A DNA stretch of 58,265 nt, filler included, from Jimgerdemannia flammicorona (lineage: Eukaryota): the NCBI GenBank assembly GCA_003990765.1. It is 2 parts of 2 records of this genome, joined end to end, with 100 filler letters (N's around TTAATTAATTAA, not from the genome) between each part and the next. Parts side by side here need not be neighbours in the genome. Positions count along the whole stretch, not along the records: positions 1 to 29,089 come from RBNJ01000520.1; positions 29,190 to 58,265 come from RBNJ01000521.1. The stretch is one strand, 5' to 3'. Below the pieces are notes generated by a model, which saw nothing but the letters and a program-made list of their open reading frames with translations, had not been told where the DNA came from and ran no database searches. A program made the position numbers and the translations under genes. Shown in pieces: positions 3,223-52,744 of this stretch (positions are counted from its first letter, which is position 1; each line of letters opens with the position of its first letter).

Positions 3223-3531
3223 GCAATAGTAATGAGTATAAGGGAGAATTCTGGTAATAACTCACAGTAACCCTTCAGATCTTGGAATTTATAGACCTCA
3301 TAGCTATATATATGATAGTCTTTTTAGAGCAGCTAATAGTAGATATAAATAGGTTGCCTTTTTACTATTATATTTAAATTCCCACAGTATAACCAAGTTT
3401 ATTTCATACTATTTCTCTTTTTCTTAGGGTCTACAGCTCTATAGTGAGATCTGCTGACTTTATTCACATTATCTGATTAAGATGAAGAAAGACTGAAAAA
3501 TGTTATGAGGCATATTTTTGGTGGCTGAGCT

Positions 3532-11860: not shown

Positions 11861-12106
11861 GTAATCTCAGAATGGTGACATCATCATAGAAGACAGCCTT
11901 TTCTTACAAACTATCAGATCAGAGTACAAGAAGATCATATAGTATGACTCACCCAAGTTATAAAATAAGTAATGATGACAAACTATAAGTTATAATAACT
12001 ATAAGATAGATGTCTCAAGGAATATAAAAGAAGAATCAAGAAACTACAGTAGCAGTAACTTAAACAAAGCTTACAAAAATAGTTCAAAAGACTTATTATA
12101 AACAAA

Positions 12107-12931: not shown

Positions 12932-13458
12932 GTTCTTAGTAATACTGAATTTTACTAGCATCTTTTTTCTATATGTATAACTGTTTTTTTCTAGCATTCT
13001 AATCATATATAACTCAGAAATTCTTCTGATATCGTTTTTCTGTACTACCAAAATCTACTGGCATTTTGAACTTATACAACCATTTATACAGATACTTGAA
13101 TTTATACTTACAACTATAGTTTTCTGTATTTCAGTATTTTATTTAGTTATTAGAATTTATATTTAGTCTTATAACTTAGTAACTATTGAATTATATTTTA
13201 TATAAATACCCCTCTTATTTCCTTTGAAATAAAGTCAGTTAAGTTTACTATACTCAGTTTTATATAAGTAATCTAAGAGATAATAAGATAGTTTAAAGAT
13301 AAGAAGTTTGAGGACTATAAGACCTTAGGAAGGTACTCCAATAAGAACTTGCTTATAACAAACTTGTGGTTAGTCTAAGAGATATACCTTGAAGAGAATC
13401 TGATATATTTAAAGGACTCAGCAACCACTATATGACAACTTAGTACCTATTGGCTGAT

Positions 13459-16400: not shown

Positions 16401-17527
16401 AAGCAAGCCTGGAGAGTTTGCCCCAAGACTCTGTATTGATTATAGGAAGCTCAATATAATTACTGAAAAAGGATAGACAGCTCTTATAAAATATTCAAGA
16501 AATCCTTACCATCTTTGGAAGCAAAGTCAAATACTATACCATCTTAGATCTGTTCTCAGGTTTCCATCAGATTGGTCTCACTCAAGATATCAGTAAGAAA
16601 TCAGTCTTTATCATACCTGATACCACCTATATCTACCTGTGAATACTATTTGAAATATACAATATTCCAGCAAGTTTTCAGTAAATGATAAACATGGTCT
16701 TTAGTAATAAGATTGGAAAATAGCTCTTTGTCTATATTGATGATATGATCATCTTCAGCAATACTATATGGAAATATGTCAACCATATACAGCTAGCCCT
16801 CAAGAAGCTCAAGGAGCATGGTCTCTACATCAAGCCTAAGAAGTATAAGTTTGCAGCTCAGAAAATCACCTACCTAGGACACATAATCAACCAGATCAGA
16901 ATTCACACAGACTCTATAAAGATTGAGACTGTTGCAGCCTACCCAAGACCCAGAACAACTACAGAAGTCTATGCCTTTCTTAGACTGATCTCCTACTATA
17001 GAAGATTCATCAAAGGATACTCCAATATTATAGTATCTATCTATGAGCTACTGAAGAAGGAGACCAAATTCAAATAGACCAAGAAATATCAAGAAATCTT
17101 CAATAAACTTAAGACCATATTGACCCAAGTATCTATCCTCAGAAGACTAGATTGGAACCTAGAGTTCATTCTGCAGACAGATACAAGCACTATAGGACTT
17201 GGAGTAGTCCTAGCTCAGAAGAAAGATGGATATGAATATATTATCTCCTATACAAGCTGAGGCATCCATAAAGCAGAACAGAACTATGAGTTATATAAGC
17301 TTGAATACTTAGTAGTAGTTTGGGCAGTAGATAAGTTTCACTATCTAGCCAGGAAATACTTCACTATTCAAACAGACTATTCTGCTCTTGCTTGGCTATT
17401 TCACACTCTGAACCTTAAAAAAATATATACCAGATAGATCTACAGACTATAAGAGTATAACTGTACTGTTAAGCACCACTTAAGAAGAACTAATGTTAAT
17501 GCTGATGTACTCTTAAGGATATCCTAA
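13459..17527 (+). pseudogene. Element A gag-protease-dUTPase-RT-RNase H
   Basis: Zinc knuckle CFR(Y)RKEDHYAKSC about 14314-14355. Protease AIIDTGA about 14957. dUTPase RSSLAK..GVIDPNYTGEI..RGEQYFGSTG 15775-16040. RT LCIDYRKLN, VYIDDMIIFS about 16730. RNase H LQTDTS..NVNADVL. Stop TAA 17525-17527. Confidence 0.93.
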
Positions 17528-17552
17528 AATACCCCTATCAAGACTATTTAAT

Positions 17553-18798
17553 ATAAATAAGGAGCTATACTATGGATTAATCAGCTATCTTGGGCAGCAG
17601 AAGATACTCAACCACCTCAAACTCTGAACTATCACTATCATTAATTAGACTTGAAAATAATTTGAACTAGACAACACCATACTCAGAAAAGGAGAAAAGC
17701 TTATAATATCTAAATACAAGAAGTATCAAGTAATGAAGAAAGTATATGAACAAGAATACTTAGGAGGAACCAATATATATAACAAGGCAAGAAGAACCAT
17801 GTGGTGATCCAAGATAGAAGAAGACCTATACCAATTTGTCAAAGAGTATGATAAGTGCCAAAAACAGAAATAAGATCAGTAAGACCAGATATTTAAGTTA
17901 TCAAGAATTGAACCTATCCACTTTCACTATATTGCAATAGATATCATTGGACCACTACCAGTAACACTATCAGAAAACTACTATATTATAGTTATCATAG
18001 ACCTCTTTACCAAATAGATAGAAGCAGGAGTATTATAAGAAGCCAATGCTCTCTCTATAGCTGACTTCCTGAACTTAGAAATCATCTGCTACTACAAGAC
18101 ACTAAGGCAAATTATCACAGACTATAGCACAGAATTTGTCAATAGATTCTATGAAATAATATATCAGAAATATAAGATTCAGCATATCAAGATCACTACA
18201 TACCACTCTCAAGGAAATAGATAGACAGAAAGAATCAACAAGACTGTTAAGAACATCCTGGCAAAGATCTCAGACATATATGACAATTGGGATAACTATC
18301 TCCCAACTGCCCTCTCTGTCCTATAAGATATACAGTTACAGAGTTACACTTTATCCCAAAAGAACTGCTCTTTAGAGAAGAAGATTTCAATGGAATCTCA
18401 GCCATAAATCTAGACCTAACTTGGTGACAGATTGACTCAGAAATATAGAGACTACACTAAATCAAGAAGAAGAAAGAAGATTATATCATTAAGTTATAAG
18501 TACTGATAAGAAAGAATGCAGAAAAGAATCACAAGACTCTAGAATCTATCTAAATCAGAGAAAAGATCCTACTATATTAAAATATAGTAGAGGTCTTATG
18601 GTCATGAAAACTGGAGCCCAAATAAGAAGGACTCTTCTATGTGCAAGATATCAAGGGAACTATCTTCTGGCTTAGAAAAATCTCAGGGATCATACTGCCT
18701 ACTACAGTACATAGAAACAGACTCAAGAAGTACCATGAATCTATATAGAAGAAGTAAAACATAATAACTGCCCATGAGGTTCTAGTCCACAAATCATA
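17553..18798 (+). pseudogene. Element A integrase, apparently a separate ORF, no chromodomain
   Basis: Degenerate HHCC region, IAIDIIGPLP..YIIVIIDLFTK..TYHSQGN..TERINKT, and a GPF-like motif near 18630. It begins 25 nt after the RNase H stop in a different frame. Confidence 0.88.
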
Positions 18799-19353
18799 AC
18801 AGTATGTCCTATAACCAGCAGGCTATCTGTCTAGACTATTCTCTAAGAGATACAGCGTCAGCAACTCTCATCTGTAAGACTTTTGAAGCTAAAAAAGTTT
18901 GAACCATCAACTGATTGGTCAAGATCAGAATCAGGCCCTTACTCTATATGAAGAGAGCAATCTTTCACCATCATACCAAAATATAAAGGGAAGATACTAG
19001 TCTATAAACATCACTTTTTGACCCCTTGCCAAAGATTATGGGATCAGCAAATTTTTCAAAACTAGACCAATGAATAAGGAAATTCAAGAAAATTCTTATT
19101 CAGGAGGAAGATGTAACAATGATCCCAGAATGATGACATCAGTATAGGAGATAGTCTTTCCTTGCAAGCCATCAGATTGAAGCACAAGAAGATCATACAG
19201 CATACAAGATAAGTAATGATGACCAACTATGAGTCATTGTGACCACAGTATGAGTATCTTGAGAAATATAAAAGAAGGATCAAGGAACTGCAGTAGCAGT
19301 AACCAACAAGACTCACCAATCCCAAAATAGCTCAAAGACTTACCACAAATGAA

Positions 19354-20182
19354 ATGTCTACTGCTCACCAAACTTCAAGGTCAAGGAACCACCAAGGCAT
19401 CTCAGTCAAATAAAGGATGTTCCAAGACATTAGAAGAGCCATGAGAATCTACTCAAGAAGGACTCCTAGTGTCAACCTGGGTACTGATGACTCTTATCAT
19501 TATATTCTCTACTGTCATGAAATGGAAACAAGGATCACCATTACTACCAAATGCCTCCAAATATAGCAGGAGTATGAAATAGGAAACCTCCTCTGCCAGG
19601 AGTTCTCACAGGCCAGCACTCAAGAGCTACAAGATGCCACTCTCATAGATATATATGAAATAAGGACAGCTAAGAAGATCTATCAGATCTTCAAGTATGT
19701 ACTATGGTTGATTCTCAACTTGGAGTATGTTAGAGTCTCAGACTTCAGAGATCTATTAGCCTGCCATATCAATATACTAAAAGCCAGAGTGGTTATAGAA
19801 GTCCAGTCCATTATCACCCTCGACAATGATAAAGTAGAAGACTTCTGGCATTCCATCCTCTAGGACAACTCAGACCAATTCCTGCAAGGATTGATCTCAG
19901 TATTCTAAGACCTAAGTATCCAGATTAGACCTTCCCAAAACTCTATATTTGTTCTCTATTTTGTAGAAAAGAACCTCATAGACTAGAGAGCCCCAGACCT
20001 CCTTGTTCCCACCAATGCCAAACATAATGATATCATTGGTGATGATGTCATCCTGTATGATATATGTATATGAAACATATGACCTATGTAATGATGATAA
20101 ATTTGCAAACCTCATCTCCTTCTAAGACATCCTGACCTCTAATGAGGATGAAGCCTCTATGGTCTTGAACATTCTGCTCTAA
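19354..20182 (+). pseudogene. Accessory ORF inside 3' LTR A
   Basis: MSTAHQTSRSRNHQG..YEIGNLLCQEF..YEIRTAKKIYQIF..DNSDQFLQGL..FANLISF..MVLNILL*. A few transition-type stops and one frameshift near 20065. Confidence 0.78.
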
Positions 20183-21539
20183 AGTCCTTTGATGATACTG
20201 AATTATGCCAGCACTGGCATTCTAATGTGATACTGAATTATTCTAGTACTATTTTTCTATACCACCAAAATTATATCAGTATTCTGAATCTATATAACCA
20301 TCAGTGCCAACTCTGGAACTTAGCAGTTTTTTTTGTTCTGACATTTTATTTTAGTTATAAATTTATATTTAGCTTTATATCTTAGCAACCATTGAATTAT
20401 ATTTTGTATAAATATTCCTCTTATTTCCTCTAAAATAAAGTTAGTCTTCTCAGTACAATATACACACTTCCTTACAAGTAATTTAAGAGATAATAAGATA
20501 GTTTAAATATAAGAAGTTTGAGGACTATAAGATCTTGGAAAGGCACTCCAATAAGAACTTGCTTATAACAAACTTGAGTTAGTCTAAGAGATACACCTTG
20601 AAGAGAATCTGGCATATTTGAAGGACTCAGTAACTACTATATGATAATAAATTATATATTTATTTAATTCTCACTTAATTATACTTGCTTATTATAACTA
20701 TTATATCCTTCTAATTTATCTATCATCTTTTTGATACTTTATATAATTCTTTATCTATCTATATTAATATCTGAATATACTGCAATAAATTGATCTATAT
20801 CATTTTAATAACTAATATATTCTTTATACAGATGCTATAATTTAAGCATAATATAAAAAATTTGAGAAATTAGTATAATTTGATATTTTGTCTACTAAAA
20901 TATATAGTTTACTAATGATTTTTACCTATTTCTATCTATTTTAAATAAATTGATTCTTATCTTATATTTAGAAACTATATTCTTAAAAATATACCAATTA
21001 GTTATATAGTAGTATAAATCTGTAATCTACTTAATTATTCCATCCTCTTATTGATGAATAGTCTTTACAATATTCTTTACTTGAGAAATAATAGTAAGAG
21101 TGAGTATACTTGAGACAATCTGTATTACTATTGATAATAGCTCAGCTGTTTTGATAGATTCAAATATGTTTGCTTATAAAAGAGTATTTCTGAAAGATCT
21201 TCAGATCTTATATTGTATGCACAATTCTCAAAAGACTTCTTAGATGTAGTTCAGTTTGCATATCTAAGTACTTTATCATATCTATAATTGATTCTCAAAA
21301 ACTTCAAATCCTTATAAACAGTGATAGAATCTTAAATATTTATCACTAAACCACTATCTCCAAGCCTAAGAAACTTATATAACTACTCTTACAACTCATC
21401 TCTTTTCATATTTCTGGACAGCTTTGCTTCTTTAGATAATTTGCTATTTATTTATTTAAAAAAATCTTTCAAAATACTCATATATAAATAACTAAGGAAG
21501 ATGTTGACAGGAATATTATACTTGTCTGCAAGGAAAACT

Positions 21540-21712
21540 AATAATGAGCTGATAGTAACTTAGATAGATAAGAATAAGATAGCAATATCTTGGGTAAACA
21601 AAGATAAAAAAGGGCTGACAATAGCTTGAGATGACAAAGACAGGCCAGCAACAGCTTTAGATAATAAAGACAGGTAAACAATAGCTTAGCTAGATAAAGA
21701 GATAACAGTAAG
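21540..21712. repeat. Degenerate minisatellite, unit about 30 bp, about 5 copies
   Basis: Recurring GA(T/C)AAAGACAGG..CAA(C/T)AGCTT units. ORF 21538..21723 shows 10-aa periodicity (L.KLL). Confidence 0.55.
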
Positions 21713-22019
21713 AGTATGGTCACACTATCTGGAAATAATAGCAGCTAATATAGGTGTAGAAGTATTAGAAGCAGATAAGGCAGATGAAGTAGAAAAAGAA
21801 GACAATATCATATAAAAAACTCTATTATGCAAAATTTTTATATATATAAGCCATGGAAAATATGGTTACCAAAGAGATTAAGATCTTACTAATTCTCAAA
21901 AAAGGTCTTAATCTAGGTTCAGTTAGCTATAATAGATCCCATACCTCAAAATATTCACATAAACTTCAAATTTTTTTTTTATAGCCAAATTGACATATCT
22001 CAGTAAGAATTCAAAACTA

Positions 22020-23500
22020 ATTGAGAAATACTAAAGAAAGAAAAACTACTAGTTATATTAGAGTATAAGAAAGAATAAGCAATAAAGTTAGTATATAAAC
22101 TTAGTTACTTAGGAGAAACAAATATCTATAACAAAGTAAGAAGAACAATATGATAGTCTGAAATAGAGAAAGATATATATTAGATAATTTGTCAAGATCT
22201 GTAAAATTAATAAAATCAGATACTAAGACTAGCAGATATAGAACTAGTACTATTTGCCCATATTACAATAGATATAATTAATTTATTATCTCTGATATTG
22301 ACTGATAACTGATATATTATTATTATCATAGACCTTTTTATAAAATGGTTTAAAGTAGGATCTCTAAAAAAAAGTCAATATATAGTTAATTACTGATTTC
22401 TTCTATAGAGAAATCATCTGTTAATTCAAGACATCAAAGTAAGTAATAATAAATAAAGGAACAGAATTTATAAACCAACTCTTTGAGGTTCTATACAAGA
22501 AGTATAAGATTTGGTATATTCAAACTATAACTTATCATCTATAAAAAAATAGACAGACTAAAAGAATTAGTAAGATACTTAAGAATATTATTATCAAGAT
22601 CTATAATAACTATGAAAATTGAGACTACTATCTGCTAATAATATTATCTACTCTCTAGAATATATAATCACAAAGCACTTATTTTATTTCTTAAGAATTG
22701 CTATTCAGAGAAGAAAGTTCTAAAGAAATACTATTATTCAATAGAGTTATAATATGAAAATATATGAAAATATATAAATATTATAATATAAAAATTATAC
22801 TAAATAAGAAAGAAAGCTAAATATTATATAATTAAGTATAGATATTATAATAGAATAATATAGAGAAGATCTATAAGCTCTTAGAGATTATTAAGATAGG
22901 AGACAAAGTTCTAATATATTAGAATATGATAAAAGTTTCATAGTTATAAAAACTGGAGAAGAAACTATCTTTTGGTTATAAAAACTATCAGATATAATTA
23001 TTTTTACTACTATTTACAAAAACTGACTCAAGAAGTACTATATATAGCTAACTAATTAAATACTACTCTAGTCCTTAAGATCACAAGTACTACCTAGTGA
23101 GCTATAAAAAGACAATAGTAATCTACTGAGTTATCAATTATAGAGGATTCTTTTGATAATATTCAAAGTATTGTACAGATCTATCTATTATATATTTTAT
23201 ACTTTAGAGCCTACCAGAACTATGCTAAGTTTTAAAAGTACTTTAAGCTGAAACAATTATTAAATAAGAAGAAGAATATGATCAAAGAAAAGTAAATTGC
23301 TAAGTACTAAATATTCTATACCCAAATTACTATTATCAAGTAGGTCTATAAACTATTTAAGAATAAAAAACAAGTTCTGACCTATTTTCAAAAAGTAGTC
23401 TTAGGAAATTTCTAGTAAGTAAAGTAATATTTTTGAGAGAATATAATCAAGCAGATTATATAGTATAAGTATATATAATTGGTTAAAGTATAGGAGTTTG
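22020..23500 (+). pseudogene. Highly decayed family A-like integrase plus downstream region
   Basis: Colinear with 17680-18790: YIIIIIDLFIKW, YHL..NRQTKRISK, KIGDKVL, DSRST. Confidence 0.75.
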
Positions 23501-24139
23501 AATAAGGTGATTCAGAGATAAAATCACTTATTTAGAAGAAATTTGTGATAATTGATCTGAATTAGAAATAACAATTAGAGAATAGATATTTGATTATAAT
23601 ATCTAAATTTAATCTTTGATATAATATAGTATATAGTTTAGCAGTTATTTGATCTCTTAGTTATATAATTTGTATAGCTATATAAAATTCATAATTATAT
23701 AGATTATATAGATATATAGATCTCTCAACTATATAAAATAACTTATAGAAAAAGAAGTCCAACTTAGCTACTATATATTGAAATATCTCAGTTATAGAAA
23801 CTTAATATATAGTAGTATAATCTGACTACATTATCATGTAAATATTATCAATACATATAAAAATATATAAGCTATCAATAAATAAACACTACTTCTTCTC
23901 TCCACTCTTCTTCAAGTATTCTACAATAAAATATTATAAGCCTTACTAGTAAAAACAGATAATAACAAAAATACCTCTTTAATATATATACTTACTATAT
24001 AAAGAAAATATCATTATATCAAATATATATAAACTTGCCAAGTAGTATAAGTAAAATAGAATCTAGAATAGATACTAACAGTATAAGCATATCTATTATA
24101 ATAGTCACAACTACAACCATTCTTATAGTAGTACTAATA

Positions 24140-25200
24140 ATAATAAAAAGGATGATTTCTATCTTTGATAATAAGAATTATATTATATGAGTATACTATA
24201 TGAAGAATCTCTTGAAAGAATATAGTCTGGAGAACTACTAGAAGCCACAGATATAAATAATAAGATATAATACTATAAGAGATTACAAAGCACTAAGAGA
24301 GATCATATTTACTCTTTCAAATAAAACTTATCATCAATGCTATAATAGCAAATAAAGTCTGGGAGATTTTACATAATTACTATCAGTAAGTATCTATATA
24401 TAGTGCTCCCAACAAATCGAATCGAATCGAATTTGGCCCAAACTCGATTCAATTCGATCAAATCAAGGGTCCAATTCAATTCGAAGTTTGATTCAAACCT
24501 TAATTTTCAAAATGTAATAACTCGACGAAAACTCATCCAAATTTAACATATTTTAGCTTGTTAGATTCACTGTATTAATGTGATTCTAACAAGCTAAAGT
24601 ACGTTAGATTTGGATGAGTTTACGCTGAGTTATTGCATTTTTAAAATTAGGGTTCGAATCAGACCCTCAATTTGATTCAATTCAAATTGATTTGACTCAT
24701 TTGGGAGCACTATCTATATAAAATAGATTTCATCTAAAAGTACAACTATTCAATTTCTAAATAAAGTCTAAGAAGAGTATCTGAAACTATACCAACTATA
24801 TTGATAATCTGATAAATTAAGTAAATTTTCTTTCTATATTGGTAGATCTCATCAAGGATAAAGACAAGGTTCTGACTCTTATATGTGACCTTTCTGAGAT
24901 ATATAACATAGTTATTACTATTATGAGAGAATTCAAAAAACTATTAGACTATAAGTATATAATTATATGTCTTTTAAATAAGAAATTGAGACTGGGTGAC
25001 AATAACAGTAATGAAGATAATAAGAAAGCATTCTATGAGTATATAGATAAGGCAAAGATAAGCTGAACAAAGAACAAGGACAAAACCAATAGTATAATAG
25101 TTAGTGCAATAATTAATAAGTCAAATTTAATGATAAATACTTCTATTGTAATATGTAAGTGTAGATACTGTGAGTAAGACTAACTATAAGAAGAAGAAAA
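24140..25200 (+). pseudogene. Ty1/copia-like gag remnant, interrupted by a MITE
   Basis: FDNKNYII(W)VYYMKNLL, ANKVWEIL and IKDKDKVLTLICDLSEIY resemble copia gag N-terminal and UBN2 segments. Degenerate FYC knuckle at about 25140. Confidence 0.6.
24401..24712. mobile_element. hAT-type MITE, 312 bp, young (CpG retained)
   Basis: Perfect 12-bp TIRs TAGTGCTCCCAA / TTGGGAGCACTA. 8-bp TSD TCTATATA at 24393-24400 and 24713-24720. Subterminal ATCGA repeats and a central palindrome. Confidence 0.93.
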
Positions 25201-25439
25201 AAGATAAGTAATATAAACAGATAAATATTATGAATACTAACTACATATAATAAAAGTAATAAAGATAGTAAAGATTTATTTTTTACAAAATTAGCAATCT
25301 ATCTATATGTAGAAAAAAATATAGAAGTAAATTTGGAAACTATTTTTATACTGATGAAAAATGATAACATAAGTACTAGTACTATTATAAGCTATATATA
25401 CATATAGTAAAGACATCATCTTTCTTTGCTACAATTCAC

Positions 25440-28400
25440 ATTATACACACTCTTACAACACACTTTCAAGTTATTTATTGGAGAAAGATATTAAGGTAAT
25501 GTCTACCAGTAAGTAAGCAGATATATATACTAGCTTAGATAGAGCTGGAACCTTTAACTGGCAATATGTTGGATAAAGAGATGGGCTTGGAATGGAGTCC
25601 TTCAGTGGTCTGAGTGGGAGAGATAGTTCAGGCAGTAGAAGTGATGCTGGTAGTGGGGCTGGAGGGCTGGCAGAAAAGAGCTTTGTGGATATACTGAGGA
25701 GTGGTGGTTGGCCAGTGGGGACTCAGAGTAGACAGGTGGGTGGGAAGGGAAAGCAGAAGGTTGGAGAAGCTGGAGAAGCTGGAGGAGCTGGAGCTCAGCT
25801 AATGAGTAGTAGGACTGGTGGGGTGGCTACTAGAAGTAGTGATGGGACTGCTAATAGTGGTGTGAATGGGAATCTAGAAAAAAATCCAGATGTGACTATT
25901 GATAATGGGGCTGGGCAGATGGGTCTGAAGTGGAAAAGAGACCTGGCTGATGGTGTAATGGGGCTAGCAGTAGCACCATTACTCAAAAAGTTGATTTTGG
26001 AGTTTGTGGCTACTTTGTACTTCCAGAGCTTAGTAGTGATGGTAAGAATAGTCCTGGGGCTTATCTCACAGCAGGTATCTGGGGCAGTCTCGGTGAAGTT
26101 TCTGAAGGGGCTGGAGGGGGTTGAGGTGGGCTTTGAGGAGGTAGGCCCACTTGATGAGACTCTGAAGACTAAAGTGGTGGTCAGGGAAGTGATGGTCCTG
26201 ATGGTGTGATGCCTAAGGTGGGATCCCAGAGTAGTACAGTTGCTGGTGAAGGAGATATCTGTGGTGACAAAAGCTGAGACTAGGAGGAGGGTGAAGGAGA
26301 TGATGGCAGAGTATAGTGACATAGTGGATATTGACTTCCAGATGTGGGAGGGGATGATCTTTAGAACTAGTGATATTGATGTCAGGATTAGACTAGCTGA
26401 GAGAGAGGCCACAGAGAAGATGAGTGACTGGCCCTCAGTATTGATGTGGGGGGCATTTGTCTGTAAGGTATCAAAGGTGAAGAGGAATGAAGAGGAGGAG
26501 AAGAACTTGTTGGAAGTGCTGGAGGAGTTGAGTGGTGCAGTTGAGCAGCAGGTGAAGGCCTGGAAGCTATATGTGGAGTCGACACACTTGGAGATTATTG
26601 ATGGGAAGTATATTCATACTGACAAGAGACAGTGAGAGAGAGCTCAAGGGCACAAGAGGCAGTGAGAGCTGCTGGTGAGCATGGAAGAAGAGGTGAAGGT
26701 GAAGGCTGGGGATACTAAGAAGTCTGAGGGCATGAAGGCAAGTATCTGGGCTAACAAGCAAGGAAGTGAGGGGGAGGAGGGACTGGGTGGGGCTGAGAAG
26801 GTGCTGCATACAGACCTATTTGCTAATGGCACATTTGAAGTATGGGACTTGGTCATAGAGAACACTCTCTCTCTGATCAAGTGGGGTCTGGCTGCAAGGG
26901 GTCAGGTAGAGGAGGATGTATTGATGAAGGGTGTGTAGAGAGTTCACTTTGGGGTTCCTGATGTGGTGAAGGGGGATCAGGTGGTGGTAGTTGGTAAGAA
27001 TGAGCTGGTGGATGTCCCAGAGGAAGAGTAGGATGAAACCACCAGTATAGGGATGGACACAATGATGCTCAATACAAGGAGGCTGGGGATGTCAGAGAGA
27101 AAAAAGGTGGGGAACCTGCTGTAGATGAGTAAGATGATGGATAACTTTGCAGCTGAGAAGTTGGGGGAAGTGGACCTGTATATGATGCCAGAGGAGCAAT
27201 GGGCACAGATTCTGTATGGTGATGGGGTGGTGGAGGCACTGAAGGCAGAGATTTTTGTGATTTTTTTGAAAAAGGAAGGATATGAGGTTGATGTAGTGAG
27301 AGAGGCTGAGATGGCAGTAGTTGCTAGTGAGCAAGCTGCCTACTGTTGGGCTAAGTGGTATGGGTTGTAACTCTGGTAGGAGGCATGCCTGGAGTATCAT
27401 GAGGACTTTGAGAAAAAAGAGGATGGAGTATTGGCTGAACTTCTGGTAGGAATAGAGGTACAGGTGGCTGAGAAGAAGGCTCTGGCTGTAGAACATGATT
27501 TGAATTTAACACAGGAGGAGTTGAATGCAGATTTGTAAAGGATGGGATTGTTCAATGCTATTATTCCTTATGAACAGTATAACTAATATTTTCTTACTGA
27601 ATGTGAATGGGCTATGGGGTTCTGGGTGGCATAGAAACATTTTTACTTAGTTTAAAGGATTAGAGGCTGATCTCTTTTTATTGCAGGATGTATAGTGTGA
27701 GGATGAGGATAATCAGGTAGAGTGGACTAGATAATGGGGAGGAGATACTACTTAGTTTGGCAAAGTGGTGATTCTGGTGAAGAAGGGAAAAGGAGACTTG
27801 GGCAGGGTCAAGAGCTGGGGCCACTGCTTGGTCTGGAGAGATTGGAATTGGCCAGGGTGGGAGCTGGTGAGAGTTGGCTCCTACTACTATCCTGCAGTTA
27901 GAGGTGAGAGGATTGCATGGATTAGGGATCTGCTGAAGGAGGATATTCTTTTAGAGGAAGGAGTAGATGTTCTGGGTAGTGATTTTAATATGGTTTGGGA
28001 TCTGCAATTAGATTGAACTAATGGAGGGAGAAATGCAGATAGGAGGAGTGATGGTCTGGATGTATGAGAGAAGGTGGAGAATCTTAGCTCTCTTGGAGAT
28101 ATGGGCAGAATATGGTGGGGCAATATAAGAGTCTATATTTATTGGGTGAATGGCTTGGGTACAAGGATTGACTGGATTCTGACAGCCAAATATTGGGGTA
28201 TTGATGTTTGGAAGACTTTGGAGACAGAGTGGTACCCATAGTCTGATCACTGGGGGACTATTAGAGCAGGGGCAGTTTGGGGAGAGTAGAGACAGACCCA
28301 GATATTGGCACCTTAACTCCTCTCTGCTGGCTGAGAAGGTGCTGTGAGACTCATGAGTAGAGGCCATCCAGGCAAAGATACCTATCTGGAGGCATGAGGG

Positions 28401-29089
28401 TGTGTCTGTGGGCATCTGTTGAATGAGTTTGAAGGAGGCTGCAAGGATTTATTGAGGAGAGGCTGGTAGGGAGGCTAGGTGGTAGAGAAGGAAGTGAGTT
28501 AGGTGTGCTTCTAATAGACTGATGAGGTTACAGTTGGAGTGGGTGGATTTGCTTTCTTCTATAGAGATGGAAGATTGGAGGTTGGAATAAGCAAAATTAG
28601 AGATAATGGAGCTACAATAGATATTGAGAGATAAGGAGATGTATATGAAAGGGATGGCTGCTAGGCTATAATGGCAGGAGCTTGAGGAGAGAGAGTGGCT
28701 TACTAGGTACTTGTCTAGACTCCCCAAAGCTAGGAGGGTATGACATTGATAGAATGGGGTCTTGAATGCTGAAGGGAATATGGTGTATAGTATACAATAG
28801 ATATTGGAGATATTGAAGGAGAGATGGCAGGATCGGTGGAGTGAGAAGGTAGGGGGTGCTGATGAGGAGACAATTGAAGATACACTGGAGGAGTGGAAGC
28901 TGAGGGGTTTGGTATAGTGTATCTCTCAGAAGAGTGGTGGGAGGATTCAGGTAGTGGGTAATTAGGTTGTATTTGGGCAGAGAGAGGTCGAGGGAGGAGG
29001 GTTGGGTCCACAGAGCATTAGTTGAGGATTTGGGGTGACATTGTATTGTTAGAAGTATAGATGGCAGTAATAAAGGTCAGTCCAAGGGA
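25440..29089 (+). mobile_element. L1-clade LINE with ORF1 and APE endonuclease, RT internally deleted
   Basis: ORF1 pieces 25592-27540. ORF2 start MNSITNIFLLNVNGL at about 27570, then GSDFN, TRIDWIL, SDH. The sequence jumps at about 28830 to the ORF2 C-terminus. The 3' end AATAAAGGTCAGTCCAAGGGA abuts the gap. Confidence 0.9.
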
Positions 29090-29189
29090 NNNNNNNNNNN
29101 NNNNNNNNNNNNNNNNNNNNNNNNNNNNNNNNNTTAATTAATTAANNNNNNNNNNNNNNNNNNNNNNNNNNNNNNNNNNNNNNNNNNNN
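29090..29189. other. Assembly gap (100 bp) with artificial TTAATTAATTAA linker
   Basis: 44 N, then TTAATTAATTAA (29134-29145, stops in all six frames), then 44 N. Confidence 0.97.
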
Positions 29190-29345
29190 ATAACAAGATA
29201 GTTAAAGATAAGAAGTTTGAGGACTATAAGACCTTGGGAAGGCACTCCAATAAGAACTTGCTTATAACAAACTTGAGTTAGTCTAAGAGATACACCTTGA
29301 AGAGAATCTGGCATATTTGAAGGACTCAGCGACCACTACATGATA
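29190..29345 (+). repeat. 3' end of a family A LTR
   Basis: Near-identical to 20490-20646 and ends ACCACTACATGATA. Confidence 0.92.
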
Positions 29346-31631
29346 ACATTTAAGAAGATTTCTTAAAGGAAATTCTCCAGTAGTAAATAACATTAGAATC
29401 ACTTCTAGTATATGGTATTAAATACATAACTCTTTAATATATGAATCTAATGTATTAGGCAACTGTACTATGAGTATGCCACTTTCTGAGAAAAATAAAT
29501 ATTACTGAACTTTTGATTATTTAAATAGTATAACAATATAAGACCAAAATTAGAAGATCTTGATGAGGACATCAAAAGCTAAGAAGAGAAGAGTTGTAAG
29601 TACATAACTTCTAAGTTACTAAAATTATACATCACCCTCTGAATAAATCTGAAAATCATATATAAGATTATGAAGCTGAGTTAAACTGAAGTTATAGAGC
29701 ACAAAGCTGAGTTAACTCAAAGTTACAGAATATAGGATTTACACAAATAGAATCTTACTAATCAGGATCAAATATATATACCAAATACTCAGACACATTG
29801 AAACAAAGAACTACAACAAACCAAACAAATAATTATAACTCTTAAATATATACACAAATATGACTACTGAGATCTATAACTACATCTATACTGATATTTG
29901 AAATGTCATTGTCAACTGAGTCACTCCTCTCTTACTCCTTATGAATATCTATAGTCTGGCACCTCTCTACTTTATGGAAGCCCAATGAAATGCCATGAAT
30001 ATACTCAGAAAAGCTCACTGAATTGGACAAATCTCAAGCTACTATCAGATTAGCTGTCTCCTAGAAGATATGATCAAACACTACTATAATATAGACATTA
30101 TACAGATATCTCAATACTAGAAACTCATTGCCTACAAATACCAAGAACTCTTCTATGAGTATAGTATCTTTATTCTCTATCTCTGAGTTACCATCACTAA
30201 AATAGTTACCACTCTGTTCTATAGCCAAATTGATGATATAGTACAAGAACTCAACTACAAGTATATTGAGTATATTCAAACTACAGATAGAACTTTCTCA
30301 CACTCTGATGACTATATTCTACAAATGTCTCAAGTTGGATATACCATGAAAAATATCTACAATATAATCCAGTTTGATAATAATGAAGTAGAAGACAATA
30401 ATTCCTCTGATACCAACATGACCTCCAGCCAAAGATCCTTGCCAGCTCTGATTATCTTATCAATCTTGCTGATGAACTTATAATAGTTTATAACCACCTA
30501 TGAGACCTATTGAGATAATGATCACTGGTATGAGTACTAATATGTATTTACCTTCAACTACTTTAACTATAATGAGAAAACTGAAGAACATAATCTGTAT
30601 CTCTAGACAACTCTTGAGATCAAACCAACAACTCTACTATCTGAGTATGAGCAATATGAAGAATAGCTACTAGCTTACTACAACTCAGTAATACATAGCA
30701 CCATAATCTATAGAAGGTATATAGATAGTGAATTTGATAAAAGTGAAGATGATGCACTCCTCCTTCATCCACCAACTTCATATCTAGCATACAGACAGAT
30801 GATATCCTATGGGATAGTAATATGGTCCCAATGTATTATTACCAGAGTGAACAGAGAGAAGTAATCTGAGAATTACTCTTTCTAGATGACTACTTTATCA
30901 GAGATAATATCATCAACAGTAATATCATTAAAGACTATCTAGATAGTATCTAAATCTATAGATAGCTTAGTAGTCATTAGCATAAATAGATTAGTCTCAT
31001 ATAATATAATTATATACTGACTTAGTAGTCAGATGATCTCTTGATATATTAGTTCACAATTATACTATATGACTGTATTCTGACTCAGCAAGGTACTAAG
31101 TGCTACATCTATATTTAGCATAGTTCAGATAGCTCTCTATTAGTATAAATACTCTCTTTTCTAGACCTCAGAATCTCAGACTTAAACAATTCAAATATAA
31201 CTTCTAAATACTTTTCTATAATATTCCTTCACATAACTACTCCTAGTATAGTAATATCATGAATAATAAATAAATCTATTTAATAATCCACAAACTATTT
31301 TTATGTAAATTTATACTCCATTAGATCTTACTTCTAACTATATTATAAAAGTTCCTAATTAGGTATTATCTATAGTAATATACTGATTTAACTAAGCTGG
31401 TCTTAGTTTCTTAAACTTCCTGAAATATGGAAAATCCTGAACATCTAGAACTAGTCTATAAAAGGACTTTGATTGAGATATCAACTCAATCTAGAAATTA
31501 ATAAGTATAGAGGATATACTCTATATGAGATTGATCTTGACCTTAAAAAAACAGTCTTCTAGAATATCCAGAACTTTCAGAAAACCCTTTCAAAACTATA
31601 TAATAGTACTTTTATAAGTAATCCTCTTATA
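29346..31631 (+). mobile_element. 3' end of element B: internal tail, PPT (29581-29594), 2037-bp 3' LTR (29595-31631); inverted relative to the rest of the element
   Basis: GAGGACATC..TAAGAAGAGAAGAGT precedes TGTAAG. The LTR matches the reverse complement of 38414-40442. Its downstream flank CATCC matches the element-sense upstream flank CATTC of that LTR. Confidence 0.85.
29860..30953 (+). pseudogene. Accessory ORF inside LTR B
   Basis: MTTEIYNYIYTDI*NVIVN*VTPLLLLMNIYSLAPLYF..YYQISCLLED..Y*KLIAYKYQELFYEYSIFILYL..DYLDSI*. It stays in one frame for about 255 codons before the first frameshift. Confidence 0.75.
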
Positions 31632-32095
31632 CATCCCAATTCTTCTTTAGTACATCCTGCAGTTCATCCTCACCAGCAGCCCCACCTAGTACTCTATACT
31701 TAGAGTGCTCCCTCTTACCCATCTCTGTATCTTTCACAACTACACTCAACCCAGGGTTACCTCTCACTCCCTGGGTCACCTCCAGAGTCACCTCTTTCTT
31801 CCCCACTCAGATACTCACTTATAATCCAGTATCTTCAATAGTGGTCCCCCCTGCTGTCTCCTCTCTCAATGTTGCCAATAGCTCTTTCTGAATCTGCCTC
31901 CCCTGTGCCCACTCCCAGGCTGCCTAGTCTAGCTGCACCTTCTTGCCATTGATAATCTCTATAACTATCTTGGTCTCATACTCCTTCCAGGCCAATCTCC
32001 TCCTCTCTACAGCTTCAGCCAGGTTCTCCAATACCTCAAGTAAGTTCTCTTTCTCCTCCAGTATCTCTTTTACTCACAAGACCTTATACTTCACT
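31632..32095 (-). mobile_element. L1 ORF1 fragment, the inverted upstream continuation of the L1 at 40443
   Basis: Reads EEKENLLEVLENLAEAVE..AWKEYE..GEDELQDVLKKNWD and continues as ESARR at 40447 on the + strand. Confidence 0.82.
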
Positions 32096-33465
32096 TGTAA
32101 TAACTCTTATTTCTATCTCTTTCTAATCCTTTAGATACTTAGGGAAATAAGGTATTACTTAGGGACTTAGTATATAATATATATCAAGAAGTCTTTAGTT
32201 TGAGAAAGTGCTTACTTGAAAGTAGTTATAGTAGCAGTATCTTATTTTTTAAAGATCTTTCTTATTTGTCCTATCTTTTAAGAGTCTTATTCTTTGCTAT
32301 ATACAGACTAAATTTACTTTGGAATTTAGGTTCAATGAGTTTACTTAAGTCTTTTGTAATTTATATACTAGTCTCAGTTCTGGTAGAAGTTAGCTAGACT
32401 TCTGGAGTTTAGTCAAAAATACTAGAGTTACTTAGATATTATTACTAAGACTTAGGGAAATATATGTATAGAGGGGGAACTTGATTCTTATATCAAGAAC
32501 TGAACTAAAACTACTTTATTTCAGATAGAAACTGGGGAATATTTATACAAGTTGGTCCATGATTTCTGACTAAGTATGAGTAACTAATTTGATAACTATA
32601 GTGAGATTTGTAATCATGATTTTTATCAGATATTTTGTGACAAAATACACTTTATAATCAGGACCTCAATTACTAGGTAATGATCAGCTACTATAGCAAT
32701 AGTTGCTATAGTGCTAATTACTAAGGATAAGCTGGATATCATTTTTCATATTAATTACATCATTCATTACATTCATCATTCATAATATTATATATCATGC
32801 TCAATCATATAATGATATCATTACTGAGTCATGTGATCACTCATTGTATCTCATCTGTTCACTTATTCATTCTATTATATCTTTTTTTCCTTAAAAATTA
32901 ACATCTTTATTGATTCAGAAATTGAGAACCAGGGGAGAGAAAGGTGGAGAATCTTCCTCAGTATTGTTGTCTTTTCTTTTAGTAGTAGGGGGGATAGTTG
33001 CTGATGGCTCAATATCTAGAATAAAGAAGTTAATGAGATCTGCAAATAGTTCTCAAACTGGTATAAGCATTGGTATAGGGATTCTCTATCTAATGCAGTT
33101 GGGGTCATCTAAGTAGGATTCTTAATTCTCATGCCTGAGAATATCTATTTGGATAGGTGGTCCTTCAAAGAGGTCAGAGAGGCCTTGAAGTCATTGGTCT
33201 GGATTGTCATTTAGAAGGAGACTCCAGTGGAGTTTGTAGTTAGTAGACTTGAGAGTAATCTAGAAGTTGACTTCTTAGGCTACCTTAATCTTTAGCTCAT
33301 CAATCTTGGAGAATAAGAGGTTCTGAAAATCCTTCAGTTATACATAGTTGAGGTTAGAGATTGTAAAAGATGCATGATATATGATTTGATAGACCTTTTT
33401 GGCTAGTCTTTACTCATGCCTATCCAGGTGGGTCCAGTCTGAGATCTGTTCAGTAGGTGGCTAGG
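32096..33465 (-). mobile_element. 3' end of LTR element family D: accessory ORF remnant, PPT, 784-bp 3' LTR
   Basis: LTR 32096-32879 bounded by TGTAATA / TATTATA. Purine tract at 32880-32892. It is not alignable with LTR B by eye. Confidence 0.75.
32915..33460 (-). pseudogene. C-terminal two thirds of an accessory ORF homologous to the LTR A ORF
   Basis: HE*RLAKKVYQIIYHASFTISNLNYV*LKDFQNLLFSKIDELKIKVA*EV..ITL..WSLLLNDNPDQ*LQGL..FADLINF..LVLNF*, in a single frame of 182 codons. Confidence 0.82.
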
Positions 33466-36400
33466 TTTTGTTAGTGTTGAGGACTTGTTGCATTGACAGG
33501 TATCACAGAAAGTGATGTAGGTCTTCATCTAATCTACTATATAGAGTCAATAGAAGTTTCAAGAAATAACTTTATAGTATTTGTCAAATCCTAAATATCT
33601 AGCTATAGGGGCATTATAATATTTAAATAGGATAGTTCTTCAGAGATCTCAATTATTAGAAATATACAATCTGTCCTTATTATAGATGGTATTATTCTTC
33701 AGTTAGTATTAATGATACTGAATATACTTGTTAATATCATTACTGCTCAGGATTTCTCAGAGTGCTTAGGCTTCTTTATTATCAGTGCATGCTATAATAA
33801 TTTATTCTATGATAGAATTGATAACTAAGGTGAGGATTTGAATAACCGCTTTAATTAATAGTCTAAAAATTACATTGATAATAATATTCTCCTTACTAGA
33901 ATAATACTGGATTTCATAGTCAAAGTTGGTAAGGACTTTCATCCATTTGGCTTAATTTTAGAAAAGAGTAGTCTGGGTCTTAATATTAACTAATGATTTG
34001 TAGTCTATTAAAACAGTGAAGTGTGCTCCTTTGAAGTAAAGTCACTATTTAATCAGAGTATTTATAATGGCTAATATTTTCTTCTCATAGATTATATAGT
34101 TGATTTCAGCATCATTAAATTTGCAAAAATAATAGACCACAGGGTATCCTTCTTATATGAGTACTGCTCCAAGAGCTAGGTCAGAGGCATCAGTAGTGAC
34201 TTTATATAAGAGAGCAGGATTTGCTTCTTGAAGTACTAGAGTGGTTATCAAGGCATCCTTCAGAGCTTAAAAGGCTATATATTGTTCAGGTTACCAATTT
34301 ACAAGATTGTTGAAGTCTTTTTCTTACTTTATGGTCCAAGGCTATTCTTCTTTCTTACTATACTTAGTTATTTAGATAAGGGCAGTAGCAATTTTAGCAA
34401 AGTTTGCAATAAATTACTAGTAATAGTTTTTTAGTCCTAGGAATAACTGGAGGTCCTTCAACTTCTTAGATCTGGGCTATTCCTTGATTGCAGAGATTTT
34501 GCTGAAGTCTACTTTGATTTTATTTAGTATGATAATATATCTAAGGAATTTAATTTTTTTCCAAAGAAATTCATATTTGCTGAGTTTTGCAAAGAGTCTA
34601 TTTTCTTGAAGCTTCAGTAGTATTAGTTTAAGATGTTTGAGATATTTCTCCAGAGTTTTGCTGAAGACTAGGATATTGTCAATATAGATAACAAATTTGT
34701 CTAAATATAGATATAGAATGGTATTCATTAGTATCTGGAAGATTGCAGGAGTATTAGTTAAGTCAAAGGGTATAATCAAAAACTCAAAATATCTATAGTG
34801 AGTTCAGAAGACTGTCTTGTAGATGTCTTCTTCTTTCATAGCAATTTTCCAGTAACTATTTTGCAGATCAAAAGAGCTTATAAATTATAAGTTAGTAAGT
34901 CTATCAAATATTTCATCAATTTGAAATAATGGGTAATAGTTCTTGATAGTCTGTTTATTGAGGTTATAGTAGTCAATATACATTTTCAGGTCTTCTCTTT
35001 TCTTAACAACAAAAAGGACTAGTGTACCATAGGATGATATACTAGGTCTAATGAATCCTTATTCTAGAAGTTCATAAATTTCTTTTTTGAGTATATCAAT
35101 TTCTCTAAGAGATACATATATATATAGTAGATTGACTTGAAGGTGAGTTTGGTATCTGGAATAGCCTTGATGGTAACTACTCATTTAAATAATAGGCCTT
35201 TTAAAAGTTTCTTTGAAAATATGTCTCAGAATTTTTAAAGTAATAGTCTAATATGGCTGTTAACTTTGGAAATGTCTTCTTCAATATTTTTAGATTCTTC
35301 TTTAGATGAATGGATAGAGATAGCAAAAAAGAGGATATTCTTGGCTAGTTTCTTGAGTTATAGCTTGTTGATATAAGTGATCTTTAGACTAGAGTCATTA
35401 GAACTAAGTGGGTCTTTTTTGTCTTGTAGTTTGAAATTGTAGTATCTCTTCTTGATAGTTAGAAAATGATTTACTCAATCAATCATAAGGTTCTCTTATT
35501 TTAACCATAGGGTTTCAAGGATGATTTCATTGTCAGAAAGTAGTATGATCTAGAGTATAATATATACTTGGTAGTCACCAATTCAGAAGGGTAGGTTGCA
35601 GACTTTCTTGTTAATAATATGTAAGATTCTATTAGCTATAGCAACTGCTTGAGTCTATTGTACTGGAGAGGTCAGAACCTTGAGTCTGTTGGCTATTTCT
35701 TTATTGATGAAGTTGCCTGAGATACTACTGTCTATCATAATCTTAACAGGTGCTCAGTTGACAAAAGCTTAGAGGATAAGTAGTTTGTCTAATCTAATAG
35801 TGATAATTTCAGTTATAGAAGTTTTCTTTCTATTGATTCTCCTTTGGACCAGTTTGTTGATATAAAAGAAGCAATTATTGATCATTCAGGAAGAGTATAT
35901 TTCAACATTATGAGGGTATTGGCTACTTGGTATAAATCTATCTTTGATTTTCTTATAGAATTATTCTTCTTTACTTATAGTAGATTGTACTGGGGTCTTG
36001 TTTGATGAGCTAAATCCTTTGGATCCTCAGATAGTAGGCAGTAGTTCAGGGACTTCTTTGACTATCAGAGTTGATTCAATTTTCTTGAATAGGATCTGGG
36101 CAATATAAAAATTGATAGGGATCTTAAATAGTATCCAACTATAGTTTTGCATAAGAACAATAATTTCACCTATATAATCTTTATCAATGATTCCTCCTTC
36201 TACTGAGAGTTCTTTTAATACTAGAGAGCTACAATAGTATATTCTTCCAACATGTCCTTTAGAGATTTGAATACTGATTCCTATATAGACTTGCTTGACT
36301 TCTCAGTTGGAAACTGTAGCTTCTTCAGCTATATATAGGTTATATCTAGCAGCTTTTTGACTTTCTTTGATTAGAGCCTTGGTAGTTGGTCTTAACTTGA

Positions 36401-39400: not shown

Positions 39401-40442
39401 CTCAGGTGGTAGAGTTGTCAGTTTGATCTCAAGAGTTATCTGGAGATATAGATTATATTCTCCAGTTTTCTCATTATAGTTGAAGTAGTTAGAGGTAAAT
39501 GTGGATTGATACTTATACTAATAGTCATTATCCCAATGGTCTCATAGATAGTTATGAACTATTATAAGTTCATCAGCAAGATTGGTGAAGTAATCAGGGC
39601 TTGCAGAGATCCTTAGCTAGAGGTTATATTAGTATCAGAGAGATTATTGTCTTCTGCTTCATCATTATTGAACTAGATTATATCATAGACATTCTTCATA
39701 GTATATCCAACTTAGGGCATTTGCAAGATGTAGTCATCAGAGTACAGGAAGGTTTTGTCTATAGTTTAAATATACTCAATATACTTGTGATTGAGTTCTT
39801 GTATCATATTGTCAATTTGGCCAGAAGACAGAGTGGTAACCATTTCAGTAGTGGTAACTTGGAGGTAGAAAATAAAGGTGCTATACTTATAGAAGAGTTC
39901 TCAGTGTTTGTAGATAATGAGTTTCTAGTGTTGAGATATCTGTATAATATCTGTATCATAGTAGTATTTGACCATATCTTCTAAGAGACAGCCAATCTAA
40001 TAGTAGCTTGAGATTTGTCCAATTCAGTAAGCTTTGCTGAGTATATTCAGAGTATTCTATCAGGCTTCTATAAAGTAGAGAAGTGCCAGACTATGGATAT
40101 TCATAAGGGATAAGAGAGAGATGGCTCAGTTAACAATGATATTCCAAATATCAGTATAGATGTAGTTGTAGATCTCAGTAGTTATGTTTATATATATATT
40201 CAAGAGTTGTCATTGTTTGTTTGGTTTGTTGTAGTTCTTTATTTCAATACTCAGTATATATACATTTGGTCCTGATTGGTAAGGTTCTATTTGTATAAAT
40301 CTTATATTCTGTAACTTTGAGTTGACTCAGCTTTATGCTCTGTGACTTCAGTTTGACTCAGCTTTGTGATCTTACATGTGATTTTCAGATTTGTTCAGAG
40401 GGTGATATGTGATTTTGGTGGCTTGGAGGTTGTGTGCTTATA
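33466..40442 (-). mobile_element. Element B 5' part: 5' LTR (38414-40442), PBS, gag, dUTPase, protease, RT, RNase H, IN zinc-finger domain
   Basis: Degenerate CCHC at about 36490-36530. dUTPase AARYNL / SSL / EGGIIDKDYIGEI / GSKGFSSS at 36410-36005. Protease MIDSSISGNFI at about 35730. RT PFDLTNTPAIFQ..YIDNILVFS (34477..34779). RNase H VTTDASDLALGAVL at about 34190. IN CDTCQCNK at about 33500, then truncated. Confidence 0.92.
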
Positions 40443-52661: not shown

Positions 52662-52744
52662 TTTTTTTTTTTTTTTTTTTTTATAGTCCCTTGGACTCTG
52701 TCTTTATTACCAGTCTATGAATAAGTATACAATATCACCACCCA

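Follow-up and report, generated by a model that had tools for sequence, protein, structure and literature searches.

Can the same accessory gene be carried inside the long terminal repeat (LTR) of one retrotransposon and between the LTRs of another? This question was raised by a stretch of DNA of 58,265 nucleotides (nt), filler included, from Jimgerdemannia flammicorona (GCA_003990765.1), which consists of the two records RBNJ01000520.1 and RBNJ01000521.1 and is referred to below, at its full length, as the window. A first-pass annotation of the window, which is a nest of decayed repeats with a guanine plus cytosine (G+C) content of 22-54%, had noted an open reading frame (ORF) inside the LTR of one element, here element A, that resembled an ORF just upstream of the polypurine tract (PPT) of another, here element D. 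The results described below indicate that this frame is probably a genuine element-carried accessory gene and that its product is a member of a small protein family, not described before, of dUTPase-bearing Ty3/Gypsy retrotransposons.

Homology of the accessory frames of elements A and D

Decayed frames were compared by tblastn and Pfam with stop codons read as X, and DNA was also compared in purine/pyrimidine coding, which makes the comparison blind to transitions. The frame was found at the following places:

12107-12931, plus strand: accessory ORF copy A1, 275 codons with 11 stops in a single frame, 62% identical end to end to P0001, an uninterrupted database protein of 271 amino acids (aa)
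19354-20182, plus strand: accessory ORF copy A2, about 10 stops, frameshift near 20053-20095
140-3, minus strand: ORF codons 1-46, a fragment within the third LTR A fragment (tblastn, profile)
32915-33463, minus strand: what is left of the accessory ORF in D, namely its C-terminal two thirds without the first ~92 codons, seven stops, terminal TGA at 32917-32915

The proposed homology between the ORF of LTR A and the ORF of D was confirmed by tblastn (35-38% identity over 124-141 aa, E 1e-15 to 1e-21). Thus, A2 (19354-20181) matched D (33454-33032) with 37.6% identity over 141 aa at E 1.3e-18, or 1.3e-21 in the reverse direction, and A1 (12107-12928) matched D (33448-33077) with 34.7% identity over 124 aa at E 1.2e-15, while the A1 and A2 proteins were 59.7% identical over 236 aa. 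The motif strings quoted in the first-pass annotation were found in both the A and D frames. In purine/pyrimidine coding, 19639-19939 and 33433-33134 agreed at 79% over 304 nt (183 bits), and the best match of the same query other than the A copies and D reached 77.6 bits. The intact protein P0001 aligned to all four places in the window, including D (40.8% identity over 125 aa, E 1.8e-22), and a family profile run against the six-frame translation of the window returned these four places only (12107-12928, 19354-20179, 33463-32912 and 140-3), plus a noise match at E 6.

Related proteins outside the window

Relatives were sought in three ways. A word-indexed search of 5.8 billion proteins gave 4 matches among 149 candidates, exhaustive searching of 1.84 billion representatives with HMMER gave 6 matches at E up to 0.001, and a profile search of 8000 scored candidates gave 11 family proteins. 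The intact homologues were 214-342 aa long and formed at least four groups sharing 27-47% identity:

A-type group: P0001, P0002 and P0010, with fragments
D-type group: P0005, an intact protein 52% identical to the D remnant
Third group: P0007
Fourth group: P0011, P0009 and P0012

Every full-length member begins with MPxxR, members that reach the end finish near VLNF, and the blocks KKIHQxFRH, LQDNPDQxLQGL and FxGPxI are common to members. The intact homologues in several diverged subfamilies uphold the view that this is one real protein family. One of the six HMMER matches, a repetitive protein of 2033 aa (P0008) matched in 14 short stretches, was dropped as spurious once read. No fused or longer form of 600-2000 aa was present among the 8000 candidates, which is weak evidence. 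Scanning of metagenomes with P0001 identified one locus, a contig designated L001; no relatives were noted among viral contigs with P0007 and P0005 as queries or among prokaryote genome contigs with P0005. The 11 members matched no Pfam family, foamy-virus families included, apart from ATG5_HBR in 2 of the 11 at E 0.088, which was treated as noise, and a profile search of PDB sequences gave no match at E up to 10.

Selection on the frame and decay of the window copies

Past selection on the protein, which the first-pass annotation had deduced from its conservation, is implied by the intact ORFs across subfamilies but did not reach significance at the codon level. Transversions between A2 and D at codon positions 1, 2 and 3 numbered 40/31/46 over 140 codons, a coding-like order that was not significant, and a further count of 32/28/42 was likewise not significant. 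Open frames of 214-342 codons across this divergence argue for selection without proving it, because gene callers report open frames only. The same observations bear on a different explanation, which is that no functional protein exists and that the frame is a conserved non-coding segment of the LTR, or a decaying fragment captured from the host, that has stayed open by chance in some copies. The outcome of the codon-position test, the readiness of gene callers to report any open frame on short metagenome contigs and the partial extent of several matches (P0003, P0004, P0006 and P0013) would all be compatible with it. We nevertheless regard it as very unlikely, given that the frame is open in subfamilies at 27-47% identity with its start, its end and blocks such as LQDNPDQxLQGL conserved, that outside the ORF the DNA of A and D is similar only in two short signals, and that no host-like relative was found among 5.8 billion proteins or among proteins of 600-2000 aa.

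Judged from sequence comparison, the window copies have been wrecked by C-to-T and G-to-A hypermutation. Thus, 271 of the 363 differences between L001 and the window were C>T or G>A changes. In a soil-metagenome DNA run, 2171 short contig pieces were at least 80% alike the window, and at 156 places of comparison the window had A where the contig had G in 53 cases and T where the contig had C in 70. Thus, an A or T of the window mostly corresponds to G or C in the contig pieces, which indicates that the window copies are the hypermutated ones. Cover by the soil run was thin at 20003-20344 and beyond 20686, and nothing was drawn from either gap. C-to-T changes between L001 and 17381-19474 were fewest at CpT (10/113), compared with 64/204 at CpA and 41/154 at CpC; the CpG rate is unusable, and no context preference was drawn because two CpG counts were pooled.

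Position of the gene in element A

Element A and related LTR copies were resolved into the following features:

11864-13439, plus strand: LTR A, 5' copy, direct repeat of 19122-20647, first ~6 nt replaced by an A run
13440-19101, plus strand: internal region of element A (Pfam, tblastx)
~14876-14908, plus strand: Gag zinc knuckle (tblastx)
15081-15215, plus strand: possible protease (weak Pfam match)
15655-16041, plus strand: dUTPase (Pfam, E 3e-18)
16469-16888, plus strand: reverse transcriptase (RT; Pfam RVT_1)
17078-17458, plus strand: RNase H (Pfam RT_RNaseH)
17718-17873, plus strand: integrase H2C2 domain (Pfam)
17934-18206, plus strand: integrase core (Pfam rve, in A only)
19102-19111, plus strand: PPT, AGGAGGAAGA
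19112-20649, plus strand: LTR A, 3' copy, TGTAAC...ATAATA (from ...ATAACA)
1-381, minus strand: third LTR A fragment, in reverse orientation and truncated at the edge of the window, 98% alike in purine/pyrimidine coding (first 380 nt)
29190-29347, plus strand: isolated last 158 nt of LTR A, 92-94% identical to 13280-13439 and 20490-20647

The accessory gene of A lies wholly inside the 1.54-kb LTR and is present in both LTRs of the full element. This placement follows from the order of features in L001 and from the retention of the LTR start next to three different flanks. L001 is an unmutated metagenome contig of 2109 nt (46% G+C) that is collinear with 17381-19474 at 81% identity, and its integrase is 71% identical to that of A. 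Its integrase/pol frame ends with a stop at 1420 and is followed by the PPT AGGAGGAAGA, then by TGTAATGG at 1737, a TATA sequence (AATATAAAGG) at 1904 and the ATG of the ORF at 1989. The 5' boundary of LTR A was identical in three copies (19112, ~11864 and 381 on the minus strand) that have three different upstream flanks. The order in LTR A is accordingly PPT, TGTAAC, 150 nt, TATA, 89 nt, ATG, ~275 codons, 225 nt, a TATAAATA-N-AAATAAAGT core, 210 nt and the LTR end. The two complete LTR A copies were 73% identical as plain DNA and about 90% identical in purine/pyrimidine coding.

Right before the isolated LTR A end, runs of N occur at 29090-29133 and 29146-29189, 12 nt apart (TTAATTAATTAA); they are an assembly gap or a masked stretch. 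Further integrase remnants at 22007-23120 (plus strand) and 5127-4513 (minus strand) were 35-38% and 26% identical, respectively, to the integrase of L001, with no relative of the accessory ORF downstream of either (tblastn, profile).

Position of the gene in element D

Element D is carried on the minus strand of the window and its features are as follows:

33478-37604, minus strand: internal region of element D (Pfam, tblastx)
~36802-36770, minus strand: Gag zinc knuckle (tblastx)
36374-36003, minus strand: dUTPase (Pfam, E 1e-18)
35771-35448, minus strand: possible protease (weak Pfam match)
35004-34537, minus strand: RT (Pfam RVT_1)
34296-33922, minus strand: RNase H (Pfam RT_RNaseH)
33651-33478, minus strand: integrase H2C2 domain (Pfam)
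33454-33478, minus strand: junction at which the integrase zinc domain is joined directly to ORF residue ~93
32880-32892, minus strand: PPT, AAGGAAAAAAAGA, 22 nt after the ORF stop
32096-32879, minus strand: D-type 3' LTR, 784 base pairs, TATAATA...TATTACA

Both A and D have the Pfam domains, Gag zinc knuckle, PPT and LTR ends of dUTPase-bearing Ty3/Gypsy elements, and in both the accessory frame is a sense ORF within the element borders that is distinct from Gag, Pol and Env. In agreement with the first-pass annotation, the elements that carry it represent different LTR-retrotransposon families: RT was only 35% identical between A and D over 113 aa (tblastx), and the dUTPase is placed differently, the order being protease-dUTPase-RT in A and dUTPase-protease-RT in D, as read from weak protease matches (E 0.007 and 0.009). 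Variable positions of dUTPase are also reported, in the available part of PMC2864245, for Gypsy elements of a basidiomycete.

In D the gene is quite likely internal and ends just before the PPT, to judge from a purine run followed by TATAATAG at 32892-32872, downstream of the ORF stop. The sequence TATAATAG at the LTR start equals the TGTAATGG of unmutated A after G-to-A changes, such that the first 8 nt of the LTR agree. A 16-nt pattern of eight purines plus TRTAAYRR had two matches in the window, both strands together, with 0.49 expected, at the D site and at the PPT/LTR junction of A. Moreover, the terminal inverted repeat TATAATA...TATTACA has its inverted terminus 784 nt on, and another repeat family starts beyond ~32090, just past this end.

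The D copy is itself damaged. It matched only residues 93-213 of P0005 and positions 86-270 of the family profile, and the match begins within ~25 nt of the integrase zinc domain; no integrase core was found in D, either as Pfam rve or as a tblastn match of the L001 integrase. This pattern points to the loss of about 2 kb comprising the integrase core, intervening DNA and the first third of the ORF. The D junction thus appears, from its sequence, to be a deletion of about 2 kb or else a chimeric joint.

Such a deletion could also have created the apparent shift in position. In that event D, too, would carry the gene in its LTR, the genuine PPT and LTR start would have been lost with the deletion, and the purine run with TATAATAG would be a chance look-alike. 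Everything between the integrase H2C2 domain and ORF residue 93 is indeed missing from D, which is where A has its PPT and LTR start, the D-type LTR has no second copy that confirms its 5' boundary, AT-rich DNA of this kind often contains purine runs, and at least two matches to the junction pattern were present in 9 of 100 shuffled sequences. Chance is nonetheless unlikely for this junction, because the second of only two matches in 58 kb on both strands lies 22 nt past the stop of a homologous ORF and in the right orientation. The agreement of the first 8 LTR nt with unmutated A after G-to-A changes and the inverted terminus ATTACA at the place where homology to the other repeat begins also speak against it, and we consider a gene that is LTR-borne in both families unlikely. 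Thus, of the positional shift claimed by the first-pass annotation, both placements of the gene were recovered, within LTR A and, in D, upstream of a PPT/LTR start, but the D side of the claim comes from one junction in a broken copy. The statement that the LTRs themselves do not align also held in part only, since the LTRs have in common the PPT/terminus and a 35-nt TATA/AATAAA core. Purine/pyrimidine alignments of the D LTR with parts of LTR A, with the D 5' side and with an LTR-like block described below were uninformative (z -0.8 to 2.7). If the internal position in D is accepted, the difference between A and D would stem from a displacement of the PPT/attachment site with respect to the gene.

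A frame past the D stop (32914-32830, minus strand; INKDVNF...SEQMRYNE) bears, by eye, a faint likeness to the 50 aa by which P0007 is extended at its C-terminus (INDLTTR...TEQMQHF); were the likeness real, the frame of some members would run on across the PPT region, like that of nef. The LTR-like block, here block X (2.84 kb, TG..CA), is present in three copies of 81-85% identity at 377-3223 (plus strand), 37605-40443 (plus strand) and 29597-31631 (reverse complement). Read on the minus strand it starts with TGTAAG and ends with ACA like a long LTR, and it had no Pfam match. One copy adjoins D on its Gag side and another adjoins an LTR A start, and the copies 29597-31631 and 38414-40440 form an inverted pair flanking D.

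LTR signals and a possible transcription unit

Candidate signals were noted at these positions:

12021-12030, plus strand: candidate TATA of 5' LTR A, AATATAAAAG, kept in 4 of 4 aligned copies
19265-19274, plus strand: candidate TATA of 3' LTR A, 89 nt upstream of the ORF ATG
13201-13235, plus strand: TATA/AATAAA core of 5' LTR A
20407-20441, plus strand: TATA/AATAAA core of 3' LTR A, proposed genomic promoter and poly(A) signal
32513-32547, minus strand: TATA/AATAAA core of the D-type LTR, TATAAATATTCCCCAGTTTCTATCTGAAATAAAGT

The 35-nt core pattern had three matches in the window, two in LTR A and one in the D LTR, with 0 expected. In retroviral LTRs with a short R region, TATA and AATAAA are closely spaced, an arrangement that the shared core resembles. 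The core is a putative genomic promoter and terminator, and taking it as such would place the ORF of A in U3, which is its probable position. The upstream TATA would then start a short mRNA, whose first AUG would be the ORF start and whose 3' end would be set by the poly(A) signal of that LTR. A separate short mRNA fits the distribution of ATGs in L001, where the 168 nt from the LTR start to the upstream TATA contain 10, compared with none in the 84 nt that separate this TATA from the ORF ATG. Every LTR A, solo LTRs included, would in that case be a complete gene, and in D the same transcription unit would be single-copy and internal. Among sequencing runs, no RNA run was listed, and one run of soil-metagenome DNA contained 8% of the words.

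Alternatively, the upstream TATA (LTR offset ~155) may be the genomic promoter itself, with the ORF lying not in U3 but in a very long R/U5 as the first cistron of the genomic RNA. The position of this TATA 85-89 nt before an ATG, with no ATG between them in L001, and the presence of the ORF in the 5' LTR would suit such an arrangement. It would, however, need an R or U5 of ~1.3 kb and translation of Gag past an upstream ORF of 275 codons, and the D-type LTR, which is without the ORF, keeps the downstream core, which argues that the core is the common genomic promoter and terminator. We therefore think a first-cistron arrangement improbable and retain the location in U3.

Properties and possible function of the protein

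The product is predicted to be a soluble, acidic and mostly helical protein whose N-terminus is mildly basic and whose acidic tail is disordered. Five proteins had isoelectric points (pI) of 4.5-5.9 and net charges of -8 to -28; the first 45 residues were basic in four of the five and the tail, in which the DLIxF and VLNF motifs occur, was very acidic. The maximum 19-residue Kyte-Doolittle mean was 0.59-1.07 in all five, indicating no membrane segment. AlphaFold2 run on 14 sequences predicted helices at 18-184, a small hairpin and disorder from 218, with a predicted local distance difference test score (pLDDT) of 51.8, and predicted self-association of two copies of residues 14-220 gave no verdict. 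Searches with the model and sequences gave no relatives: Foldseek returned 0 PDB matches at E up to 0.001, a wide VIA-align search had a best Z of 4.1 with 0 of 48,161 chains at Z of at least 5, and two ESM Atlas queries had best scores of 0.83-0.85 with template modelling (TM) scores of at most 0.33, below the bar.

The assertion that the protein is not Gag, Pol or Env agrees with the presence of zinc-knuckle Gag and Pol domains elsewhere in the elements, with a polar, basic N-terminus and with the lack of any 19-residue window above 1.07. The role imagined for it by the first-pass annotation, that of a small helical DNA-binding transactivator or anti-silencing factor analogous to VANC, fared less well. 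DNA binding received no support, the proteins being strongly acidic, and no DNA-binding domain was found by Pfam or VIA-align. None of the tools used gave evidence of transactivation or anti-silencing. As to VANC, all 11 members had 0 Pfam families, the ATG5_HBR noise apart, in a library whose content of a VANC model was unchecked. The acidic, soluble and helical properties speak against direct binding to DNA and fit an adaptor or acidic activator. By analogy with foamy-virus Tas, a nuclear trans-acting activator or adaptor that raises expression of the element is conceivable, a guess we hold with considerable doubt. An antagonist of host silencing is less likely again.

Handling of RNA is another function to be weighed; the protein would in that case help to export or express the unspliced genomic RNA, the part played by CERV in Cer1 and by Rev and Rem in retroviruses. 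In favour of this, the protein is a small and non-structural addition to a retroelement, an arginine-rich N-terminus is present in the A type, and the available part of PMC10309623 provides a precedent, CERV, in an LTR retrotransposon. However, the arginine-rich stretch is absent from P0007 and P0011, and it is therefore not the conserved motif seen in Rev, Rex and Rem. Since the protein is also acidic overall and showed no similarity to any such factor in the Pfam, PDB-sequence, Foldseek and VIA-align searches, this function is about as improbable as antagonism of silencing.

We also put forward a tentative model that is rather less probable than not. LTR A would be a protein-coding gene complete in itself, with a TATA of its own ahead of an ORF of 271 codons and with the LTR providing the poly(A) signal, present in two copies per insertion; solo LTRs would keep supplying the whole family with a trans-acting factor; the sister families would record the step by which the PPT/attachment site, formerly downstream of the gene, came to lie upstream of it; and both fold and function would be new. 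Several points weigh against the main reading given above, that of an element-carried accessory gene placed inside the LTR of A and internally in D. The structure model is poor, as its pLDDT indicates, and similarity hinting at function was found in no search (Pfam, PDB sequences, Foldseek, VIA-align and ESM Atlas). The arginine-rich stretch of the A-type N-terminus is not conserved in P0007 or P0011, the family is tiny, with 11 proteins on short contigs from gene callers that report open frames only, and the codon-position counts of A2 and D were not significant. On the side of D, a single D-type LTR is present, such that the internal position derives from one junction; the copy is truncated and lacks the integrase core and ORF residues 1-92; and D may be a chimera of two elements, because its 5' side abuts block X, which is a different LTR-like block. 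With respect to transcription, the upstream TATA is kept among close copies only, where conservation is uninformative, the TATA/AATAAA core pattern was defined post hoc from an alignment already seen, and transcript starts, ends and splicing are all predicted from the DNA.

Other repeats in the window

Other repeats, richer in G+C and strand-skewed, occur at 25844-28545 (plus strand) and 58132-55427 (inverted), at 40528-44021 and 49208-52665, and at 53774-54619 (minus strand). The last is an open frame in which an RT-like FVDDMVV motif was seen by eye, and it may belong to a non-LTR element.

Comparison with known systems

Extra genes are a route from simple retrotransposons to complex retroviruses, and to our knowledge very few are known outside animals and plants. 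The superantigen gene sag of mouse mammary tumor virus (MMTV) lies in the U3 region of the LTR of this vertebrate retrovirus, and its product is a type II membrane glycoprotein. Like sag, the gene of A is a sense ORF inside a long LTR, present in both LTRs, upstream of a putative promoter/poly(A) module and hence probably in U3; unlike sag, it encodes an accessory protein without a hydrophobic segment and without sequence similarity, in a Gypsy-type retrotransposon. The nef gene of human and simian immunodeficiency viruses (HIV/SIV) spans the 3' PPT into U3, and Nef is myristoylated and membrane-associated. The present gene is similarly a pol-distal accessory gene of flexible position relative to the PPT/U3 border, its stop lying 22 nt before the PPT in D and its start 242 nt after the PPT in A, but it has no homology to nef. 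Foamy-virus Tas (Bel1) is the product of a small accessory gene at the 3' end with an internal promoter and has an acidic C-terminal region. A 3'-end gene with a candidate promoter of its own upstream and an acidic C-terminal region is found here also, which made Tas the model for the functional guess above; in contrast with Tas, the protein had no Pfam match, and binding to DNA is unlikely from its charge.

Among retrotransposons, CERV of Caenorhabditis elegans Cer1 is described, in the available part of PMC10309623, as a lineage-restricted nuclear protein that is made from a spliced mRNA, is needed in trans for element expression and acts in export of genomic RNA. Like CERV, the present protein is a lineage-restricted, novel product of an LTR retrotransposon; unlike the present gene, that of CERV is not LTR-borne in the text available, and the two have no relation in sequence or fold. 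According to the accessible portions of the respective papers, ORF0 of Retrosat2/RIRE of grasses lies upstream of gag (PMC3485330), ORF3 types common to bdelloid retroelements are enzymes or Env-like (PMC5408684), and brtn of Boty in Botrytis is antisense (PMC8365987). These resemble the present gene in being extra ORFs on Gypsy-type elements, sometimes common to several families, but are not described there as lying in an LTR. Crapaud of Podospora has LTRs with variable 5' halves, and an LTR ORF is not described in the available part of PMC10787394. In the literature searched, as far as its accessible text extends, no retrotransposon ORF was described in an LTR and nothing was like the accessory family; an 'add. 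ORF' drawn for fungal elements in PMC2864245, available as a figure legend only, may belong to it.

Extra retrotransposon ORFs are thus already known, and what appears to be new is the LTR-borne placement of a gene of a conserved orphan family, which counts 11 relatives in 5.8 billion proteins. The position of this gene differs between related elements, which exposes how a gene can enter an LTR. If LTR A is indeed a self-contained unit, solo LTRs would be dispersed genes instead of inert scars, a view that would bear on the persistence of elements under a genome defence such as the hypermutation seen here, and the arrangement would be a retrotransposon counterpart of those of sag and nef.

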